Shown here piece after piece: positions 5,830 through 19,769 of a stretch of 64,000 bases of DNA; within the stretch, counting starts at the first letter, position 1, and the number at the start of each line of letters is the position of its first letter. Origin of the DNA: an uncultured Clostridia bacterium (GTDB lineage: Bacteria > Bacillota > Clostridia > TANB77 > CAG-508); assembly GCA_934122115.1 (NCBI GenBank), contig CAKOVU010000003.1, positions 64,442 through 128,441 on the forward strand, read 5' to 3'. Both the position numbers and the translations under genes were made by a program. Under the pieces are notes generated by a model. It searched no databases. It had not been told where the DNA came from and saw only the letters and a list, made by a program, of their open reading frames with translations.

Positions 5830-7410
5830 ATGGAAAAGAAAAACGTAGTTATTATTGGTGCTGGTCCTGCGGGATTAACAATGGCTCATGAGTTACTAAA
5901 AGAAAATGGAAATGAGCAATATAATGTAACAGTGCTAGAAGAAACACAAGAAATTGGAGGAATTTCTAAAACAGTAAAATATAATGGAAACCGTATGGAT
6001 ATAGGAGGACATAGATTTTTCTCGAAAGATGAAAGAGTAATGAACTTCTGGCATGATTTAATGCCTGTACAAGGAAAAAACTCATTTGATGATGAAAAAC
6101 TAGGAAGAGTAAAACCTCTTGAAGAAGGTGGCCCAGACCCTGAAAAAGAAGACGATGTAATGCTTATAAGACAAAGGGTTTCTAGAATTTATTATTTAAA
6201 GAAATTCTTTGATTATCCAATTAGCATGAAAATGCAAACTTTCAAAAATATGGGCTTTGACCGCACAATGAAGGCTGGTTTTAGTTATTTAAAATCATTG
6301 ATATTTAAAAGAGAAGAAAAATCATTAGAGGATTTTTACATCAACAGATTTGGTAAAGTACTTTATAGCATGTTCTTTGAAAAATATACTGAAAAACTTT
6401 GGGGAAGACATCCAAGCGAAATATCTGCTGATTGGGGAGCTCAACGTGTAAAGGGAATATCTATTAAAGCAGTAATAAAAGATATGTTCCATAAAGCATT
6501 CGGAAAGAAAAATAGCGAGAATACTGAGACTTCTTTGATAGAACAATTTTGGTATCCAAAATATGGTCCAGGACATTTATGGGAGACTCTAGCAAATAAA
6601 GTTTCAAATGAAGGAGCTTCAATATTAAAAGGATATACTGTTAAAAAATTAAATTTCAAAGATGGAAGAATAGTTTCTGCTGAATGCGAAACACCTGAAG
6701 GAATTAAAACAATAGAGGGAGATATATTTGTTTCTTCTATGCCAATGAATGATTTAGTAGCAGGATTTACAGGAATAGATGTACCAACGGAAATAAGAGA
6801 TATAGCTAAAGGATTACCTTTCAGAGATTTCATAACAGTTGGATTATTAGTAGACAAACTAAACCTAGAAAACAAAACTGATATTAAAACTTTAGGAAAT
6901 ATAGTTCCAGATTGCTGGATTTATGTTCAAGAGCCAGAAGTTAAAATGTGTAGAATTCAAATATTCAATAACTGGTCACCATACTTGGTAAAAGATGCAG
7001 AAAACAAAGTATGGATTGGATTGGAATATACATGTAGTGAAGGTGATGAATACTGGAATATGTCTGATGAAGAATTTATAAACTTTGCAATAGATGAATT
7101 AGTTTCAATGAAAATAATTAGCAAAGATCAAGTTGAAGATTCTCATCGTGAAAGAATTAAGAAAGCATATCCTGCATATTTCGACACATACAAAGATATT
7201 GATAAATTAATAGACTACGTAAATAACATAGATAATTTATACTGTATAGGAAGAAACGGTCAACATAGATATAACAACATGGACCACTCTATGGTAACGG
7301 CTATAGAAGCAGCTAAGAATATACGTAATGGAATAGCAGACAAATCAAATATTTGGAATGTAAATACAGATAAAGAATATCATGAAGTAAAAAAAGCGGA
7401 ACAAAATTAA
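5830..7410 (+). CDS. FAD/NAD(P)-binding oxidoreductase (amine-oxidase or UDP-galactopyranose-mutase-like fold).
   Basis: N-terminal dinucleotide-binding motif 'VVIIGAGPAGLTMAHEL'. 526 aa. Embedded in a polysaccharide locus. Confidence 0.6.
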   Translation: MEKKNVVIIGAGPAGLTMAHELLKENGNEQYNVTVLEETQEIGGISKTVKYNGNRMDIGGHRFFSKDERVMNFWHDLMPVQGKNSFDDEKLGRVKPLEEGGPDPEKEDDVMLIRQRVSRIYYLKKFFDYPISMKMQTFKNMGFDRTMKAGFSYLKSLIFKREEKSLEDFYINRFGKVLYSMFFEKYTEKLWGRHPSEISADWGAQRVKGISIKAVIKDMFHKAFGKKNSENTETSLIEQFWYPKYGPGHLWETLANKVSNEGASILKGYTVKKLNFKDGRIVSAECETPEGIKTIEGDIFVSSMPMNDLVAGFTGIDVPTEIRDIAKGLPFRDFITVGLLVDKLNLENKTDIKTLGNIVPDCWIYVQEPEVKMCRIQIFNNWSPYLVKDAENKVWIGLEYTCSEGDEYWNMSDEEFINFAIDELVSMKIISKDQVEDSHRERIKKAYPAYFDTYKDIDKLIDYVNNIDNLYCIGRNGQHRYNNMDHSMVTAIEAAKNIRNGIADKSNIWNVNTDKEYHEVKKAEQN

Positions 7411-7561: not shown

Positions 7562-10393
7562 ATGAGAAGATATATAAAAGTAGTAGCAATAATGTTAATA
7601 TTACTATCTATGGCAGGGGCTACTAGCAATGCAAATGATAAAACAAGCAATATAAGTTTAGAAAAAGTAGTGGCAGAAAATAAAATAGTAGAAGATGGAA
7701 CCTATGTAATAAAATCTGCAATAAACAACAATTATGTATTGGATGTAGTTGGAGCCTCAAAAGTAAGTGGTGGCAATGTTCAACTATATAAAAATGCCTC
7801 GGCGGACCAACAACGTTTTATAGTAAAATACTTAGATAATGGGTACTATACTATTACAGCTAAGCATTCAAGCAAAGTTTTAGACGTGGCAAATGGAGGA
7901 AAAACAGCAGGTACAAATGTATGGCAATGTACACCAAATAATTCAGATGCACAAAAATGGTTGTTGAAAGATGCAGGAAATGGATATGTTTATCTAGTAT
8001 CAAAGTGCAATGGATTGTACCTTGATGTAGCAAATGGAGTAGCAGCAAATGGCACAAACGTACAAGTTTGCTATGGAAATAATTCAAATGCACAGAAATT
8101 TAAATTTGAAAAGGTACAAAGCAGTAATAATCCTACAAATAATACTCCGACAGGAACAAAAACAATAGAAGATGGAACATATGTAATAAAATCAGGAATA
8201 AATAATGGATATGTATTAGATGTGTTAAATGGTTCAAATGTAAGTGGAGCTAATGTTCAATTATATAAAAATTCATCTGTGAATCAACAACGTTTTGTAG
8301 TAAAATATTTAGATAATGGGTATTATACTATTACGGCTAAACACTCAAACAAGGTGCTAGATGTAGCAAATGGAGGAAAAACAGCAGGTACAAATGTATG
8401 GCAATGTACGCCAAACAATTCTGATGCGCAGAAATGGGTAATCAAGGATGCAGGAAATGGATATTACTATATAATATCAAAATGTAATGGATTGTATCTT
8501 GATGCTGCAAATGGAGTGGCAGCAAATGGTACAAATATACAAGTTTGCTATGGAAACAATTCAAATGCTCAAAAGTTTAAGTTTGAAAAATATTCAGAAT
8601 TTGTAGGAACAAAAACAATAGAAGATGGTACATATCAGATAGAGTCCGGAATTAATAGTGGATATGTACTAGATGTAGTAGGTGGTTCAAATGTAAGTGG
8701 AGCTAATGTTCAATTGTATTCAAAAAAATCTGTTACAAGACAACGTTTTACAGTTAAATATTTAGGAGATGGATTTTACACAATAACAGCTGCTCATTCT
8801 TCTAAAGTATTAGATGTAGCAAATGGAGGGAAAACAGCAGGTACAAATGTATGGCAATGTACACCAAATAATTCAGATGCGCAAAAATGGATAATAAAAG
8901 ATGCAGGAAATGGATATTATTATTTAATATCAAAATGTAATGGACTATATCTTGATGCGGCAAATGGAGTAGCAGCAAACGGTACAAACATTCAAGTTTG
9001 CTATGGAAATAATTCAAATGCTCAAAAATTTAAATTCGTAAAACCAATAAATATGCTAGAAAGTTTAGATGAAAGCAAATATCCAGGATACAAAGAAAGA
9101 ATATCTGCACTTATGAATGCACATCCAAATTGGAACTTTGAGTTTTTATATACAGGAATAAAATTCAGCGATGCAGTGGCTGGAGAATATCAAGTAAGAA
9201 AAAGAAATCTTGTTCCAACAGAGTATGGTGGAGAATGGATTTCTGGTACAACATTATATGATACAGGATGGTATGGAGCATCTGAAAAGGCTATAGCATA
9301 TTATATGGATCCGCGTAATTTCTTAAATGATACAGATGTATTCCAATTCCAAGATGTTAATGAATACTTAGAAGGAGCTTGCACATTAGAAGGCTTAAAA
9401 TCAAAGGTTGCTAATTCATTTTTAGCAGATTATGCAACAGATATTAATACAGCTTGCCTAAACCAAAATGTAAATCCATATTACATAATAGCTAGATTAT
9501 TCCAGGAGAATGGAACAAACCCTAAGAGTGGAACACATAAAATGGATGCAGGAAATGGTAAGTATTACTATAATCCATTTAATATAGGAGCTACAGGAGA
9601 TTCTTTAACAGAAGTGTATAACAATGCACTAGCTACAGCTAAGAGAAATGGTTGGGACACTATGGTAAAAGCTCTTGAAGGCGGAATTAAGATATGTAAA
9701 GAAAACTGGTTAGACAATTATCAAAATACACTTTATCAGAATAGATTTGATATAGATTCAACAAATGGAACTTCATTATATACTCACCAATACATGCAAA
9801 ATCTAATGGGTGCATATAGTGAAGCCAAAATACTAAGAAGCTCATATGCTAATACAGGAAAATTGGAATCTAATTTTACATTCCAAATACCTTTATATGA
9901 GGGAATGGATAAGGAACTTTCACCTATTCCTAAAAATAATCAAGAAAGTTATGCAATGAATGTAAAAACAACAGGCACGTCAATCCGTATAAGAGAAGAT
10001 GCTTCAACTGATTCAAAGATATTGAGAGAACTACCAAATGCTGGAACAGTGCTATTATCAGTAAAAAGAGGAATTAATTCTAACTGGCAACAAGTTATCA
10101 CATCAGATGGACTTATTGGATATGTATCTGGAACATATCTAGAACAAATTGATGATGTGAAAACATGCAACTATAAGGCAAAAGTAAAAACCAACGATGG
10201 AAATGGATGTAATGTAAGAATTGGACCAAGTACTAGATTAGATAAAGTAACAGCACTTTCAGATGGCGTTGAAGTAACGGTTATAGATAACTCTACTTAT
10301 AAAAATATAGATGGATATGATTGGAGCAGAGTAGTACTTTCTAGTGGAACACAGGTATTTATACCAAGCAGATACTTAGCAAAAATAAACTAA
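7562..10393 (+). CDS. Secreted cell-wall hydrolase. Signal peptide, three ricin-B-like beta-trefoil lectin modules, a glucosaminidase (GH73-like) catalytic region, then two C-terminal SH3b domains.
   Basis: Signal peptide 'MRRYIKVVAIMLILLSMAGATSNA'. Three ~150-aa repeats with QxW-like 'AQKW/AQKF/QQRF' sub-repeats. Central region 'YYIIARLFQENG...'. Two SH3_3-like segments at the C-terminus. Confidence 0.65.
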   Translation: MRRYIKVVAIMLILLSMAGATSNANDKTSNISLEKVVAENKIVEDGTYVIKSAINNNYVLDVVGASKVSGGNVQLYKNASADQQRFIVKYLDNGYYTITAKHSSKVLDVANGGKTAGTNVWQCTPNNSDAQKWLLKDAGNGYVYLVSKCNGLYLDVANGVAANGTNVQVCYGNNSNAQKFKFEKVQSSNNPTNNTPTGTKTIEDGTYVIKSGINNGYVLDVLNGSNVSGANVQLYKNSSVNQQRFVVKYLDNGYYTITAKHSNKVLDVANGGKTAGTNVWQCTPNNSDAQKWVIKDAGNGYYYIISKCNGLYLDAANGVAANGTNIQVCYGNNSNAQKFKFEKYSEFVGTKTIEDGTYQIESGINSGYVLDVVGGSNVSGANVQLYSKKSVTRQRFTVKYLGDGFYTITAAHSSKVLDVANGGKTAGTNVWQCTPNNSDAQKWIIKDAGNGYYYLISKCNGLYLDAANGVAANGTNIQVCYGNNSNAQKFKFVKPINMLESLDESKYPGYKERISALMNAHPNWNFEFLYTGIKFSDAVAGEYQVRKRNLVPTEYGGEWISGTTLYDTGWYGASEKAIAYYMDPRNFLNDTDVFQFQDVNEYLEGACTLEGLKSKVANSFLADYATDINTACLNQNVNPYYIIARLFQENGTNPKSGTHKMDAGNGKYYYNPFNIGATGDSLTEVYNNALATAKRNGWDTMVKALEGGIKICKENWLDNYQNTLYQNRFDIDSTNGTSLYTHQYMQNLMGAYSEAKILRSSYANTGKLESNFTFQIPLYEGMDKELSPIPKNNQESYAMNVKTTGTSIRIREDASTDSKILRELPNAGTVLLSVKRGINSNWQQVITSDGLIGYVSGTYLEQIDDVKTCNYKAKVKTNDGNGCNVRIGPSTRLDKVTALSDGVEVTVIDNSTYKNIDGYDWSRVVLSSGTQVFIPSRYLAKIN
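7680..9045 (+). repeat. Three tandem, nearly identical ~455 to 475 nt direct repeats inside the hydrolase gene. Each encodes one lectin module.
   Basis: Long identical stretches (GTAGCAAATGGAGGAAAAACAGCAGGTACAAATGTATGGCAATGTAC...) recur three times, starting near 7692, 8166 and 8618. Confidence 0.85.
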
Positions 10394-13385: not shown

Positions 13386-14396
13386 ATGAGAGAACAAAAT
13401 ATTATTAATCCTGAAGTAGAAGATGGTATAGAAGAAAAGCTTGAAATAAGCTTAAGACCTCAGTTTTTAAGAGAATACATAGGACAGAATAAAGTTAAAG
13501 AGAATATGAAAGTGTATATAGAGGCTGCAAAGAAAAGAAAGGAGCCTCTAGATCACGTTTTATTATATGGACCACCAGGATTGGGAAAAACAACTTTAGC
13601 TAATATAATTGCAAATGAAATGCATTCAAACATAAAAGTTACATCTGGTCCAGCAATAACGAAGCCTGGAGATATGGCAGCATTACTTACAGGATTATCA
13701 GAGAATGATATTTTATTTATAGATGAGATACATAGAATAAATAGAAATATCGAAGAGATATTATATCCAGCATTGGAAGATTACAAGCTAGATATAATAA
13801 TAGGAAAAGGTCCAACAGCAAAGTCAATTAGAATAAATCTTCCTAAATTTACAATAGTTGGGGCTACTACAAAAGCTGGTTCTCTTACCACACCATTAAG
13901 AGATAGGTTTGGAATAGTGGAAAGACTAGAATTATACAGCTTGGAAGACTTAAAAACAATAATTAAAAGAACGGCTGGAATTTTGAATGTTGGAATAGAT
14001 GAAGAATCAATAGAAGAAATTGCAAGAAGGTCAAGAGGAACCCCTAGAATTGCTAATAGACTTGTAAAAAGAATTAGAGATTATGCTACTGTTGTAGGAG
14101 ATGGAAAAATAGATATTTCTATTGCAAAACTCGGATTAGACAAGCTTGAAATAGATAGCCTTGGACTGGACAAAATAGATAGAAAAATACTAGATGTAAT
14201 GATTAATAAATATGGAGGAAAACCAATCGGAATAGAAACATTAGCAACCACTGTAGGTGAAGATATTGATACGATTGAGGATGTTTATGAACCTTATTTG
14301 ATTCAAATAGGATTTATAGCAAGGACTCCAAGAGGCAGAGTACCATTACCAGATGCATATGACCATATTGGGGCAGAGCATCAAATTAGAATTTAG
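13386..14396 (+). CDS. ruvB: Holliday junction branch-migration ATPase RuvB.
   Basis: Walker A '[18 protein letters not shown]', RuvB-type sensor motifs, 336 aa. Confidence 0.9.
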
Positions 14397-14419: not shown

Positions 14420-16513
14420 ATGAAAATTAATTGGAATAAGAAAATTGTTATAGGATTATTAATAATATTATTGGTTTCTATATTTTTGGAAGGTGTTGTT
14501 TTTAATATTAATTCATTTAGACTTTTAGGTGGCGATTATCCATATAAAAAGATAGAAATATCTGATGATATTCTAGAAGGTTTAGAAAACTTAGGTGACA
14601 ATAGGTATAAAGTAACAAAGAATAATCCAATGATTCGAATAAAAGACGTAAACATTCAAACAGGCACTATAAAGCTAGATATATCAAGAGAGCATAAAAA
14701 CAATCAAATCGGAAAAAGAAAGACAGATATAACTATATATTATTCAGATGCAACTTCGAAATACCTTAGAAAAACACCAACAAAAACTATTAATGAACAA
14801 ATTGCTAGAAGCCAATTTGGAATATTGCATCTTTCTGGAAAAACTAATTCAATTGTGATACAAATAAAAGCAGAAAAAGATGAGATTATAAACTTAAAAG
14901 ATATAGAGTTTAATGTTAGTGTACCTTACAAATTCAATTTTGCAAGATTTTCAATGGTATTCTTAATAATAACAGCACTATATTTATTTTTTAATTTAAA
15001 AATATTTGATGAAGAATATGATGCAAGAAATAAATATCATTCAACAGTAGTCATCATTGTTCTATTGACTTATATAATCACAATGGTAAGTACAACTATC
15101 TTGGAAAGTGATAACAAGAATATAGTAACGGATCTTGATACAACAAGAACAATAGTGTATGAAAAGTATTACACAGATTCATTAATTAATGGCAGTTTAA
15201 GCTTACAAGTTGAAAAAGATGCTAGGCTTGACGAAATGGATAATGTATATGATGAAACTGCTAGAAGCATGGAAAATATAAATTATTTATATGATTATGC
15301 TTACTATGATGGGAATTATTATGTGTATTTTTCAATATTACCACAATTGCTAGTTAATATACCATTTAGACTTATAACTGGGCAGTACATAAATGTAGCA
15401 TATGAAGTTTTGTTATTTGCATTACTAGGCACAGTATTCACGTTGCTAGCAATTGAAAAGCTTATAAAGAAATTCTTTAAAAATGTTAATTTAAGAATAA
15501 TGACACTTTCAATGATAACAGCTTTGTTTTCAAGTGTTCTATTATATTTAACAGGAAGAACTTTGGTTTATGAAGTTGTTGCTTCATGTGGATATTGGCT
15601 AATAATGCAAGCAGTATATTTCTTAGCTTGTGCATTTGATAAAGAAAAAATAAACTATAAATGTTTAACCATAGGATGCATATCTGCTGCTTTAGCGGTA
15701 AATGCAAGACCAAATTTATTAATAGTTTCATTGCTATTCTTGCCGATATTTATAGAAAAGTTTGTAGAATTTATAAAGAAATTAAAGAATGATAATTCAA
15801 AAACAACTAAAAAAGAATTTGTTAAATATATATTGGCAATAGTTCTACCTTATGGAATTATAGGAATTAGTATGATGATACTAAATTACGTTAGATTTGG
15901 TAGTATAACAGAATTTGGTGCTGCATATCAATTAACGTCAAACGATATGATAAATTTAGGTTATAGATATTCTACTATTCCAATAGGAATATGGCATTAC
16001 CTATTTAATCCACCTGTAATAAATCTTACTTTTCCGTTTATTCATATGCAACCAGTAACTCCACTTTATTTAGGCTTTTATGGATGCGGATATGTAGGGG
16101 TAGGAACATTTTGGGCAACACCAATAACGTTATTGCTAATATTTATTCCGATCTTAAGAAAGCATATAAAGAATACAAATGTAAAATTATGGAGATTAAT
16201 AAGAAATTCATTAATTGTAGCATTAATAATGATAATTGTGATAACCTTATTAGCGGCAAGCTATGAAAGATATTCTTTAGATTATACTTGGATGGTAGTA
16301 TGGCCTGCAATTGCTATGATGCTACTAATATATGATTTAATTAAAGAAAATGAATTAGTTAGAAAAATGTTTGAAATAGTATGCACGATAGCTACAATTA
16401 TATGTATTTGTGTAGCAATGGCTATGGCCATAAAATCTGAATCAAGCTATGCTGAATATTTTTCGTCAGAGCAATATGATAATATATCTCAAAGTATGAT
16501 GTTTTGGGAATAA
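14420..16513 (+). CDS. Large polytopic membrane protein (697 aa). A putative GT-C-type glycosyltransferase partnering the GtrB-like enzyme.
   Basis: N-terminal TM segment, then a ~170-aa soluble segment, then more than 10 TM segments. No motif I can assign confidently. The call comes from gene context only. Confidence 0.3.
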   Translation: MKINWNKKIVIGLLIILLVSIFLEGVVFNINSFRLLGGDYPYKKIEISDDILEGLENLGDNRYKVTKNNPMIRIKDVNIQTGTIKLDISREHKNNQIGKRKTDITIYYSDATSKYLRKTPTKTINEQIARSQFGILHLSGKTNSIVIQIKAEKDEIINLKDIEFNVSVPYKFNFARFSMVFLIITALYLFFNLKIFDEEYDARNKYHSTVVIIVLLTYIITMVSTTILESDNKNIVTDLDTTRTIVYEKYYTDSLINGSLSLQVEKDARLDEMDNVYDETARSMENINYLYDYAYYDGNYYVYFSILPQLLVNIPFRLITGQYINVAYEVLLFALLGTVFTLLAIEKLIKKFFKNVNLRIMTLSMITALFSSVLLYLTGRTLVYEVVASCGYWLIMQAVYFLACAFDKEKINYKCLTIGCISAALAVNARPNLLIVSLLFLPIFIEKFVEFIKKLKNDNSKTTKKEFVKYILAIVLPYGIIGISMMILNYVRFGSITEFGAAYQLTSNDMINLGYRYSTIPIGIWHYLFNPPVINLTFPFIHMQPVTPLYLGFYGCGYVGVGTFWATPITLLLIFIPILRKHIKNTNVKLWRLIRNSLIVALIMIIVITLLAASYERYSLDYTWMVVWPAIAMMLLIYDLIKENELVRKMFEIVCTIATIICICVAMAMAIKSESSYAEYFSSEQYDNISQSMMFWE

Positions 16514-16528
16514 AGGAGAATATACTAA

Positions 16529-17569
16529 ATGAAATTGTTAATGCATACATGTTGCGCACCATGCAGTGTATTTTGCATAGAAAGTTTAAGAGCAGAAGGG
16601 ATTGAACCAACAGTATATTGGTTCAATCCAAATATACATCCATATTCAGAATATAAGAAACGTAGGGATTGTTTAAAAGATTATACAAAATTAATAAGTG
16701 TACAAGCCATATTTGATGATGAATATGGCTTAGATGCTTTCTGCCAAGAGGCTGTAAAAGATTTGAATACAAGATGTGTGAACTATTGTTATCCTGTAAG
16801 GTTAAGGAAAACATTTGAATATGCAAAAGAACATGGTTATGATGCAGTAACAACCACTTTATTATATAGCATATATCAGAAGCATGATTTTATAAAGAAA
16901 CTTATGGCGGATTTAAGCAAAGAATATGGAATAAAGTTTTTATATAGAGATTTTAGAGTTGGATTCTGGAAGGGACATGAGGAAGCAAAGAATTTACAAT
17001 TATATTTACAGCATTATTGTGGTTGCATTTTCAGCGAAGAAGAATCTGAGTTAAAACGCATAAATTCTATAACAAAGATGCCTGATGGTTTTGAATTTTT
17101 GCCAATAAAACGTTCAATTGTAATAAAAAAGGAAAAAAATAATAAAGAAAAATATTTAGAATTATTGTTAGAGGCTGATCCAAATGAAGACGCAATAAAA
17201 AAATATTTAGAAAAAGGAGACTTGTTTGTATTAGAATATGAAGAAATTCCAGCTTGTGTTGCGGTTGTGGTGCATATAAATAATGAAACAGTGGAACTAA
17301 AAAATCTAGCCACAAAAGAGGAATATAGAGGAAAAGGTTTTGCCAAGAAGATGATAAAGTATTTATCAGATAATTATAAGCAAAAATATAAAAAAATGAT
17401 AGTTGGAACTACAGAAAACAATATTCCATTCTATGTAAAACAAGGTTTTGATAGATATGAAAAAACAATGAAAAATTTCTTTACAGATAATTATGATGAA
17501 GAAATATGGGATGGAAATCTACATTGTATAGATATGTATTATTATTCGAAAGAATTAAAGATTAAGTAA
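16529..17569 (+). CDS. queH: Epoxyqueuosine reductase QueH (DUF208) fused to a C-terminal GNAT acetyltransferase domain.
   Basis: N-terminus 'MKLLMHTCCAPCS' and 'YCGCIFSEEE' are QueH signatures. The C-terminal ~150 aa contain an acetyl-CoA binding motif 'LATKEEYRGKGFAKKMIKYL'. Confidence 0.65.
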   Translation: MKLLMHTCCAPCSVFCIESLRAEGIEPTVYWFNPNIHPYSEYKKRRDCLKDYTKLISVQAIFDDEYGLDAFCQEAVKDLNTRCVNYCYPVRLRKTFEYAKEHGYDAVTTTLLYSIYQKHDFIKKLMADLSKEYGIKFLYRDFRVGFWKGHEEAKNLQLYLQHYCGCIFSEEESELKRINSITKMPDGFEFLPIKRSIVIKKEKNNKEKYLELLLEADPNEDAIKKYLEKGDLFVLEYEEIPACVAVVVHINNETVELKNLATKEEYRGKGFAKKMIKYLSDNYKQKYKKMIVGTTENNIPFYVKQGFDRYEKTMKNFFTDNYDEEIWDGNLHCIDMYYYSKELKIK

Positions 17570-17597: not shown

Positions 17598-18623
17598 TTG
17601 GACAACATATTATGGGTGATTAATATGTTTAAGCCAAAGGCTTTATATTGTGAAAATAATATTGAAAATTATGTGCTTGGAAGAGAGTTATTAGAAAAAT
17701 ATGCTGATGTTCCAAGAGTGGTAATTGACAATCATAATAATATTGAAGAAATGAGAAAAAAGCAAAATAAGGATTTTACAGATATGAAGCAAAATCTGAT
17801 AATAGGAATTAGAAAAACACATAAATTTGTCCCAAATCATAAGACATCAGATTTTCTAGTTCCATATACATCTTCTGGTTGCACAGCAATGTGTATGTAT
17901 TGCTATCTTGTATGCAATTATAATAAGTGCGCGTATTTGAGACTGTTTGTAAATAGAGAAGAAATGTTAGATAAAATTATAAGAACTGCGCAAAATTCAG
18001 AGAAAGATTTAACTTTTGAAATTGGAAGTAATAGTGATTTAATTTTAGAAAATACGATTACAAATAATTTAGTCTGGACGATTGAAAATTTTGCAAATAC
18101 TTCAAAGGGACATTTAACTCTTCCTACTAAGTTTGATATGGTAGATGATATTTTGCCTTTAAAACATAATGGAAAAGTTACTATTAGAATGAGTGTAAAT
18201 CCAGAAGAAATTATTAATAAAGTTGAATTCGGTACATCGAGGCTAAAAAATAGAGTTCAAGCTATAAATAAATTAGCAGATGCTGGCTATCCTATCGGAA
18301 TATTGATAGCACCTGTAATATTGGTAGAAAATTGGAAAGAGCTATATTCAAATTTAATAAAATATTTGTATGAAAATTTAAATGAAAAAGCTAAGAAGCA
18401 GGCATTCTTCGAAATTATTTTTATGACGTACAGCTTTGTTCATAGGGCAATAAATACAGAAGCATTTCCAAATGCCATAGATTTATATAGCCCAGAATTA
18501 ATGAGAGGACGTGGCAAAGGAAAATATATGTATAAAGACTATATACGTGAAGAAGGAGAAGAATTTTTACGAGAAGAAATGAGTAAATATTTTCCGAATA
18601 ATCAAATAGAATATATAGTATAA
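17598..18623 (+). CDS. splB: Spore photoproduct lyase, a radical SAM enzyme.
   Basis: 'CTAMCMYCYL' CxxxCxxC cluster. Colinear similarity to Bacillus SplB to the very end ('...IEYIV' versus '...IEYFT'). Confidence 0.85.
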   Translation: MDNILWVINMFKPKALYCENNIENYVLGRELLEKYADVPRVVIDNHNNIEEMRKKQNKDFTDMKQNLIIGIRKTHKFVPNHKTSDFLVPYTSSGCTAMCMYCYLVCNYNKCAYLRLFVNREEMLDKIIRTAQNSEKDLTFEIGSNSDLILENTITNNLVWTIENFANTSKGHLTLPTKFDMVDDILPLKHNGKVTIRMSVNPEEIINKVEFGTSRLKNRVQAINKLADAGYPIGILIAPVILVENWKELYSNLIKYLYENLNEKAKKQAFFEIIFMTYSFVHRAINTEAFPNAIDLYSPELMRGRGKGKYMYKDYIREEGEEFLREEMSKYFPNNQIEYIV

Positions 18624-18669: not shown

Positions 18670-18692
18670 AAAAAAGAAGGGAGTTGATATTT

Positions 18693-18911
18693 ATGACTAT
18701 TTCAGTAAGATTAAATGAAAAAGATACAGAATTGATAAAAGCTTATGCGAAAATAAATAATATATCATTATCGGATTTAATAAGAACTGCAGTATTAGAA
18801 AAAATAGAAGATGAGTATGATTTAGAATGCTATAATAAAGCAATAAGAGAATTTAAAGAAAATCCTAAAACTTATACTTTAGAAGAAATAAAGGAGGATT
18901 TAGGACTATAA
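18693..18911 (+). CDS. relB: RelB/DinJ-family antitoxin (ribbon-helix-helix).
   Basis: 72-aa protein 'MTISVRLNEKDTELIKAYAKINNISLSDLIRTAVLEKIEDEYD...'. Its stop overlaps the toxin start (ATGA). RBS GGGAG 9 nt upstream of the ATG at 18693. Confidence 0.6.
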   Translation: MTISVRLNEKDTELIKAYAKINNISLSDLIRTAVLEKIEDEYDLECYNKAIREFKENPKTYTLEEIKEDLGL

Positions 18912-19177
18912 TGAATTATAAAATTTTATTTACAGAAAAAGCAAAGAAGCAGCTGAAAAAGCTTGATAAGCATACAGCTGCTCTTATAATTGGGTGGTTA
19001 GAAAAAAATATTGAAGGATGTGAAAATCCAAGGATACATGGAAAAGGGCTTGTGGAGAATAAATCAGGACAATGGAGATATAGAATCGGAGATTATAGAG
19101 TAATATGTGAAATAGAAGACCAGAAAATTACGGTACTTGTTTTAGAAATTGGGCATAGACGAGAAATATATGATTAA
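18911..19177 (+). CDS. relE: RelE/ParE-family mRNA interferase toxin.
   Basis: 88 aa with 'KKQLKKLDK...RIGDYRVICEIEDQKITVLVLEIGHRREIY', a typical RelE/YoeB core. Confidence 0.75.
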   Translation: MNYKILFTEKAKKQLKKLDKHTAALIIGWLEKNIEGCENPRIHGKGLVENKSGQWRYRIGDYRVICEIEDQKITVLVLEIGHRREIYD

Positions 19178-19290: not shown

Positions 19291-19769
19291 ATGGAAGAAT
19301 GGTTAAAATGGGCTATTGAAATTCAAAGTTTGGCTCAGGCTGGACTAGCATATACAAGCAATATTTATGACACAGAAAGATATGAAAGATTAAGAGAAAT
19401 ATCGGCTGAAATGATAGCTGCAAAAAGTGATATTAATTTTGAAAAAGTAAAGAATTATCTGTAAAATCAAATACTATAAAGGAAGTAAAAGAGGAGACTG
19501 GTTTAGAAGTAATAGCAAAAACAGTTATTGCTATTCAAGATAGAAATAAACATAATAATCCAATATATGCATATGGTGTATGTAAAATTTTTGTACTATG
19601 TGACATTATTAGCGGAAGGTTTGAGAAAAATATAGAAACAACAGAAACAAGGTATTTTTCATTAGAAGAAATACTGGACAATCTGGCGGAAGAGAAAACA
19701 AATAAAGAGCAAATTGAGATGTGCTTCAAGGCCTATAAAGATGAAAACTGGAAGGTACAATTTGATTAA
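19291..19769 (+). pseudogene. NUDIX hydrolase (Nudix_N-domain type, YjhB-like) disrupted by an internal deletion plus frameshift.
   Basis: Fragment 1 (19291-19464) encodes the Nudix_N helix 'MEEWLKWAIEIQSLAQAGLAYTSNIYDTERYERLREI..' and ends in TAA. Fragment 2 (19464-19769, other frame) encodes the Nudix box remnant 'KEVKEETGLEV' and the C-terminal fold. About 45 aa, including the GG..E.GE part, are missing. Confidence 0.55.

Follow-up and report, generated by a model that had tools for sequence, protein, structure and literature searches.

What does it mean when an enzyme of tRNA queuosine maturation carries an acetyltransferase at its C-terminus? The question is raised by a gene in a stretch of 64,000 nucleotides (nt) from an uncultured Clostridia bacterium (assembly GCA_934122115.1, contig CAKOVU010000003.1, positions 64,442-128,441, forward strand), here called the window. 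An earlier reading, made from the letters without database searches (in the following the sequence-only reading), had proposed that this gene encodes a fusion of QueH (epoxyqueuosine reductase) with a GNAT acetyltransferase domain, and had considered a coupled modification or a regulation of queuosine maturation by acylation. The architecture is confirmed here as that of a real single gene of an uncultured gut Clostridia bacterium. Rather probably, its product combines two autonomous activities in one bifunctional protein, with the GNAT domain as an optional accessory.

A single gene with two complete domains

The gene, queH::GNAT (16529..17569, on the + strand like all features of the window described here), is a single open reading frame (ORF) of 346 aa. 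It starts with ATG, and neither an internal stop nor a change of frame at the junction was read from the sequence. The same product of 346 aa was called in 103 blocks of the assembly collection, which come from many independent metagenomes and always have the same gene order. Since the identical gene occurs across many independent metagenome assemblies, the fusion is no artefact. The single-gene fusion of the sequence-only reading was thus recovered as an uninterrupted ORF with both domains complete, and the motifs named there were located at residues 6-13 (HTCCAPCS), 163-166 (YCGC) and 266-279 (YRGKGFAKKMIKYL). A missed stop or frameshift separating two genes, which had been considered as well, is excluded by the intact ORF and the identical product in the 103 blocks. 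As a further candidate, a separate GNAT gene with internal start at M184 was examined and rejected; this residue is leucine in the consensus and is not preceded by a Shine-Dalgarno sequence.

The QueH domain comprises residues 1-172 (16529..17044), as supported by Pfam, the PDB entry 7lc5, the AlphaFold2 (AF2) model and the ratio of nonsynonymous to synonymous substitution rates (dN/dS). The Pfam model PF02677, also known as DUF208, spans residues 3-172 over all its profile positions (1-175 of 175) with E=5.5e-54 and 183.3 bits (cutoff 23.5). In the PDB sequence search the entries 7lc5, 9dco and 9d86 matched residues 3-175 with E-values of about 1e-21 to 1e-22; for QueH of T. maritima (7lc5) E=1.9e-22 was obtained. 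The conserved cysteines C8, C9, C12, C83, C87, C164 and C166 are invariant in 94 of 94 aligned fused homologs, which are 70-97% identical. C8, C9 and C12 belong to the CCAPC motif (16550..16564), and the YCGC motif (residues 163-166; 17015..17026) forms the end of the catalytic core. These cysteines align to C9/C10/D13, C87/C90 and C169/C171 of T. maritima QueH. In comparison with this stand-alone enzyme, the full-length profile match and the aligned cysteine positions (CCAPC, C-x3-C, YCGC) are kept. Differences are found at the position of Asp13, which is Cys12 in the window protein, and in the middle cysteine pair, C-x3-C instead of C-x2-C. Furthermore, the window protein carries about 175 additional C-terminal residues, linker and GNAT domain together, whereas canonical QueH stands alone and has about 180-200 aa, a point on which we agree with the sequence-only reading. 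By homology, the complete N-terminal module would act as the iron-sulfur enzyme which, at position 34 of tRNA-Asp, tRNA-Asn, tRNA-His and tRNA-Tyr, converts epoxyqueuosine to queuosine by reduction.

The C-terminal part, residues 196-346 (17114..17566), was assigned to the YvbK-type GNAT N-acetyltransferases by Pfam, PDB matches and dN/dS. Three Pfam models scored above their cutoffs over residues 220-313, namely Acetyltransf_7 with 44.8 (cutoff 27), Acetyltransf_10 with 38.1 (23.6) and Acetyltransf_1 with 36.3 (20.7). The solved structures 6ao7, 1yvk (YvbK of B. subtilis) and 1y9k matched residues 202-343 with E=1e-20 to 7e-13. When the GNAT half was used as a query of 167 residues, E-values of 2.5e-21 (6ao7), 3.5e-16 (1yvk) and 2.1e-13 (1y9k) were found; the alignments extend to query residues 158-164 and take in the C-terminal motif of the subfamily, NFFxDNYxExIW..C.DM. 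The GNAT fold and the acetyl-CoA motif proposed from the sequence are therefore supported by the three Pfam models and by the end-to-end match to three solved GNATs. Motif A of the acetyl-CoA site, R267-G-K-G270-F-A272 (R/Q-x-x-G-x-G/A; 17327..17344), has R267 and G270 invariant in the 94 homologs. Y302 in the segment IPFYVKQGF is also invariant, and G306 and F307 are invariant or nearly so. No specific NCBIfam model was above threshold for the QueH half or the GNAT half.

The completeness of the YvbK-type domain and its intact acetyl-CoA motif suggest that this half is an active acetyl-CoA-dependent N-acetyltransferase. With the small YvbK-type GNATs (1yvk, 6ao7 and 1y9k, the last named as 'IAA acetyltransferase' of B. 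cereus) it shares the end-to-end match, the C-terminal family motif and R/Q-x-x-G-x-G/A. Those enzymes are stand-alone proteins of about 155-165 aa, whereas the GNAT of the window is the C-terminal half of a QueH protein and belongs to a clade that occurs only fused. In the literature on YvbK neither a functional account nor an established acceptor was found.

Between the two domains lies a linker of about 23 aa (residues 173-195; 17045..17113), which is fast-evolving and predicted to be flexible according to dN/dS and AF2. In the AF2 model the QueH domain reached pLDDT values mostly above 90. The GNAT core (residues 190-290) was modelled with pLDDT 72-89 and the expected order of strands and helices, and the C-terminal 50 residues were poorly modelled. 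For residues 165-184 pLDDT was below 50, and the full-length pTM was 0.50. No confident interdomain interface was present in the full-length model, which was built from a shallow alignment (70-97% identity). The model thus supports two independent domains. Pairwise NG86 estimates gave a dN/dS of 0.08-0.21 in QueH; in the GNAT half it was 0.12-0.22, and in the linker 0.18-0.70. These values are rough, as dS is saturated in distant pairs. Both halves are under purifying selection.

Distribution, origin and reassortment of the fusion

The best 120 clusters in a database of 5.8 billion proteins all have 343-365 aa and both domains. At 70-97% identity, more than 120 clusters retain a length of about 346-350 aa together with both domains. 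Members from metagenome-assembled genomes (MAGs) of Clostridia and Christensenellales are named only "epoxyqueuosine reductase QueH" at NCBI; the IMG annotation names the QueH and the GNAT half. No paper on a QueH-GNAT architecture was found in the literature, although an earlier mention may exist. The architecture is already present in public databases and partly recognised by automatic annotation, and as far as we could find it is undescribed in the literature. An exhaustive search of the GNAT half alone against representatives at 50% identity gave 572 clusters at E<=1e-10. Among these the combination with QueH was seen in one full-length representative (P0153) and otherwise in fragments only. 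Most of the relatives are stand-alone proteins of about 150 aa with at most about 50% identity, and some are joined to other partners.

The survey of queH homologs for a C-terminal extension, which the sequence-only reading had proposed, was carried out with the 80 loci closest to the query among the GTDB species representatives. The intact fusion, in the following type 1, was found in 14 of the 80 loci, from gut Clostridia MAGs and one MAG labelled Bacilli (48% identity). In three loci (L017, L026, L030) queH stands alone, and behind it a remnant of the GNAT, its last 35-50 residues, persists out of frame. Four loci (L062, L063, L067, L080) carry a different C-terminal extension on QueH, four a short tail of about 50 aa, and in three the queH ORF is cut by the contig end. 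Plain stand-alone QueH of 181-206 aa, with no such GNAT within 6 kb, was present in about 52 loci. The QueH domains nearest to that of the window (L013-L016, 74-79% identity) are stand-alone, also with no GNAT within 6 kb. The extension is widespread in low-GC gut Clostridia MAGs and absent in the closest QueH. A conserved queH-GNAT gene neighbourhood in unfused relatives was searched for with phmmer and tblastn within ±6 kb at the 80 loci, and only the deletion relics were detected.

As a side observation, four loci labelled Candidatus Saccharibacteria (L024, L041, L050 and L055, at about 6001-6700) encode a QueH which is 60-67% identical to the Clostridia protein and ends in a conserved tail of about 50 aa (GREI.R.L.R.GVSPTNA.VRKV). 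Many further loci with this label have a plain Clostridia-like QueH. Either the label of these bins is wrong or a gene transfer took place.

A neighbour-joining tree of the QueH domains shows fused, relic and unfused forms intermingled. In the GNAT tree a single clade, divided into two allele groups, contains all type-1 GNATs fused to QueH and none of the stand-alone relatives, which indicates a single origin of the type-1 fusion. Proteins with other partners, such as NUDIX-GNAT, nest inside this clade, and each of them is known from a single contig. Two of these cassettes, 67-75% identical to that of the window, are attached to a NUDIX domain (L090:2576-3529) and to a fragment of a VCA0040-like membrane protein (L091:1158-1913). 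Each is known from one short contig and could be a genuine secondary rearrangement or a chimera of the assembly.

The two halves have separate histories. For 91 pairs of fused genes the identities of QueH and GNAT were poorly correlated (r=0.34). The pair L018/L006 is 63% identical in QueH and 92% in GNAT, and the pair L003/L010 88% in QueH and 64% in GNAT. The most direct case is the comparison of the window with L087. Nucleotide identity is 92-100% over more than 4 kb up to about position 16966, 67-81% from there to the stop, and the sequences are unalignable beyond. Sliding-window identity places the recombination breakpoint in the interval 16967..17086, which includes the YCGC motif. The two halves also differ in dS, with 0.16 for QueH and 1.62 for GNAT. 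In the pair of fused L007 and unfused L040, identity is likewise 90% across the upstream genes and QueH, and homology stops at the domain junction. Near-identical genomes thus bear divergent GNAT "alleles" with the breakpoint at the domain junction. Furthermore, the three deletion relics (L017:6530-6619, L026:6557-6697, L030:6560-6708) directly follow their stand-alone queH and belong to different parts of the QueH tree. The simplest history is one fusion, after which crossovers within the conserved 3' end of the sequence coding for QueH reassorted the halves and deletions occurred repeatedly. Retention of QueH does not depend on the GNAT half, which is swapped as a cassette where the locus borders on a variable region.

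Two side findings were made at other loci. About 1.3 kb downstream of the fused gene of L018 an extra partial type-1 GNAT is located (L018:4240-4521; ORF of 94 aa, 69% identity), and in L049 part of a second queH is present about 4.7 kb downstream of the first (L049:11244-11462). Both are further signs of rearrangement around the locus.

A second fusion, type 2, to which L062, L067 and L080 are also assigned, is represented by L063:5998-7053 (P0299; 352 aa), named 'GNAT family N-acetyltransferase' at NCBI. Its QueH domain is about 62% identical to that of the window and lies in the same ruvB-linked locus. Its GNAT is only 22% identical to the window GNAT and lacks the YvbK C-terminal motif. 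Types 1 and 2 therefore have the same layout of QueH with C-terminal GNAT and occur in the same group of gut Clostridia MAGs, but their GNATs are not orthologous. At least 75 clusters have the type-2 architecture with both domains. Many versions have 270-320 aa and no recognisable domain other than QueH, the extensions being truncated or degenerate. The non-orthologous GNAT at the same position means that QueH of this clade gained a C-terminal GNAT at least twice.

Genes around the fusion

Upstream, ruvB (13386..14396; Pfam RuvB_N, AAA_lid_4, RuvB_C) is the conserved anchor of the ruvB...queH block. It was found upstream of queH in most of the 80 loci, at times with an inserted membrane-protein or glycosyltransferase gene. 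In the window this variable insert is a multi-pass membrane protein of 697 aa (14420..16513), for which no Pfam or NCBIfam match was obtained. Homologs with 27-34% identity were seen in few related loci only; the others have a glycosyltransferase or nothing at this place. The stop of the membrane-protein gene (16511-16513) adjoins a Shine-Dalgarno sequence, AGGAG (16514..16518, read from the sequence), which lies 10 nt 5' of the ATG of queH::GNAT; this ATG begins 15 nt after the stop. With AGGAG directly after the stop, the pair is operon-like and possibly translationally coupled. No terminator-like site was found between ruvB and the gene after queH.

Further upstream of ruvB, a protein of 943 aa with repeated Ricin-B lectin domains and SH3_3 is encoded (7562-10393). 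It is followed by a protein with a Cadherin-like domain and by two glycosyltransferases. This region looks like a cell-surface or glycan-related cluster.

On the downstream side no gene is conserved across the 80 loci. In other species IS transposase, RhuM, PDDEXK nuclease, Maf, HAD hydrolase and UDG genes were observed there. The window has a radical SAM gene of the spore photoproduct lyase (SPL) family (17598..18623; Pfam SPL, E=3.7e-67) directly downstream of queH::GNAT. Its product matches PDB 4fhg over the full length (E=2.3e-46) and has the CxxxCxxC motif, with glycine at the position of Cys140 of the solved enzyme. As its score is below the cutoff of the NCBIfam equivalog TIGR04070 (238 vs 400 bits), it was filed only as an SPL-family radical SAM protein. 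At the other species loci of the survey this gene is absent downstream of queH in all 80 cases. It may be a clostridial-type SPL or another SPL-like enzyme. The idea that it could be the queuine lyase QueL was dropped as an argument because of the full-length SPL alignment and the adjacency, which is not conserved.

The next two genes (18684-19177) are a pair of a DUF6290-family antitoxin and a ParE-family toxin, which fits a variable region prone to mobile elements. In the near-identical strain L084 an IS element with rve transposase lies a few kb beyond this pair. Then follows a truncated NUDIX gene (19291-19464), whose ORF of 57 aa corresponds to the Nudix_N part only. The near-identical strains L083-L085 have an intact NUDIX gene of 204 aa in the same place, and in the window the next gene follows after a stretch that is about 136 nt shorter. 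Hence, the NUDIX gene of the window strain is truncated.

Genes of the queuosine pathway were looked for in several contexts. A regex search revealed no Tgt or QueA motifs in the 64-kb window, the part of the genome that was covered, and none are present among the annotated neighbours of queH::GNAT. Beside the fused genes of other species no queuosine genes were found, the downstream genes being unrelated and partly mobile. The one stand-alone GNAT homolog with informative flanks had no queuosine genes beside it either.

Probable autonomous modules and a possible link to queuosine

The results suggest that the GNAT is an optional, swappable add-on of QueH and not a required partner, since it was deleted or exchanged while QueH stayed. 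The fusion arose by a single capture of a YvbK-type GNAT on the 3' side of the conserved ruvB...queH block, at a boundary with changing gene content. Thereafter the cassette was maintained by selection where present, reassorted at the domain junction and repeatedly deleted without loss of QueH. The modules would be strung like beads by the flexible linker, each probably catalysing a reaction independent of the other, and co-expression with QueH would be the only demonstrable consequence of the fusion. Of the proposal made from the sequence, the joining of a complete QueH to a complete GNAT stands. An obligatory coupling of the two is opposed by the stand-alone closest QueH proteins, the relics, the recombination at the junction and the lack of a confident interface in the AF2 model.

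Several observations weigh against autonomous modules. Two GNAT captures, the second of them widespread, at the same QueH position and in the ruvB locus, exceed what would be expected of naive random partners. The type-1 GNAT lineage was not encountered stand-alone, save for few single-contig oddities, which would also fit a QueH-dependent function. In addition, the missing interface is weak evidence because the AF2 alignment is shallow.

The first two of these observations also speak for the best of the alternatives, which we regard as possible but rather doubtful. Here QueH would tether the GNAT to tRNA or to metabolites of the queuosine pathway. The acetyl group could go to queuosine or epoxyqueuosine in tRNA, to an aminoacyl-tRNA, or to a precursor amine from salvage (such as preQ1 or queuine), and the outcome could be a new derivative or a control of flux. 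The two non-orthologous GNATs at the same C-terminal position and locus, a type-1 lineage that is essentially only found fused to QueH, and a GNAT under purifying selection with intact acetyl-CoA motif agree with this explanation. However, the closest relatives repeatedly lost or lack the GNAT yet keep QueH, no confident interface was predicted, the linker is hypervariable, and many type-2 extensions are truncated or degenerate. Related cassettes occur on partners other than QueH, although each on a single contig, and no contexts linked to queuosine were found. Moreover, a YvbK-family protein exists in B. subtilis, an organism that relies on QueG instead of QueH, and to our knowledge no acetylated queuosine derivative has been described. 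A functional link to queuosine is thus possible in view of the two captures and the almost exclusively fused lineage. That an action of acetylation on the queuosine system is the reason why QueH of gut Clostridia recruited acetyltransferases at least twice, be it as acetylated queuosine or epoxyqueuosine in tRNA or as acetylated salvaged amines (preQ1, queuine), seems unlikely to us, both forms taken together.

The GNAT could also be regulatory and acetylate a lysine of QueH in cis, or sense acetyl-CoA, which would tie the completion of queuosine to the metabolic state. Bacterial GNAT lysine acetyltransferases that regulate enzymes are common, and tethering would provide a high local concentration for a domain whose acetyl-CoA motif is intact. 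No specific support was obtained, however. The unfused relatives function without GNAT, an interface was not predicted, and the nearest solved relatives are small YvbK-type GNATs, which are not known as protein lysine acetyltransferases. We consider this explanation improbable. Still less can be said for a non-functional remnant that is being lost after neutral read-through into a neighbour gene, in spite of the relics and truncated extensions in several lineages. In the intact fusions the dN/dS of 0.12-0.22, though rough, rules out a decaying GNAT, and motif A residues and the catalytic-type tyrosine do not vary among the 94 homologs and are also kept in fusions with as little as about 48% identity; we judge such a remnant very improbable. 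A merging of two adjacent genes by sequencing or assembly error has a negligible chance, as nothing in its support was found and the ORF, free of a stop or frame change at the junction, is identical in 103 blocks and accompanied by hundreds of homologs of the same length and architecture.

Two autonomous modules therefore remain the preferred interpretation. Both domains clearly belong to known families, one to QueH and the other to the YvbK-type subfamily of the GNAT superfamily, and there is no evidence yet of new chemistry. Further acyl-type modification at position 34 is known from other systems. GluQRS/YadB makes glutamyl-queuosine, and TmcA makes ac4C34 at the tRNA wobble position by means of a GNAT domain. 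For the fusion described here both would be a conceptual precedent only.

For the annotation of this family it follows that the plain label "QueH" hides the GNAT half, and a single name mis-describes these proteins. Even if the two activities are unrelated, the locus is a natural example of domain-cassette exchange, in which a cassette of single origin recombined at the junction, was repeatedly deleted and was replaced by a second GNAT. As a tRNA modification linked to a micronutrient, queuosine passes between gut microbiota and host. If acetylation should act on the queuosine system, it would link the modification of the wobble base to the acetyl-CoA status in gut anaerobes. With a QueH that is tethered to a predicted acetyltransferase and abundant in uncultured gut Clostridia, the search for a missing regulator or accessory step of the pathway has an inexpensive, testable starting point.

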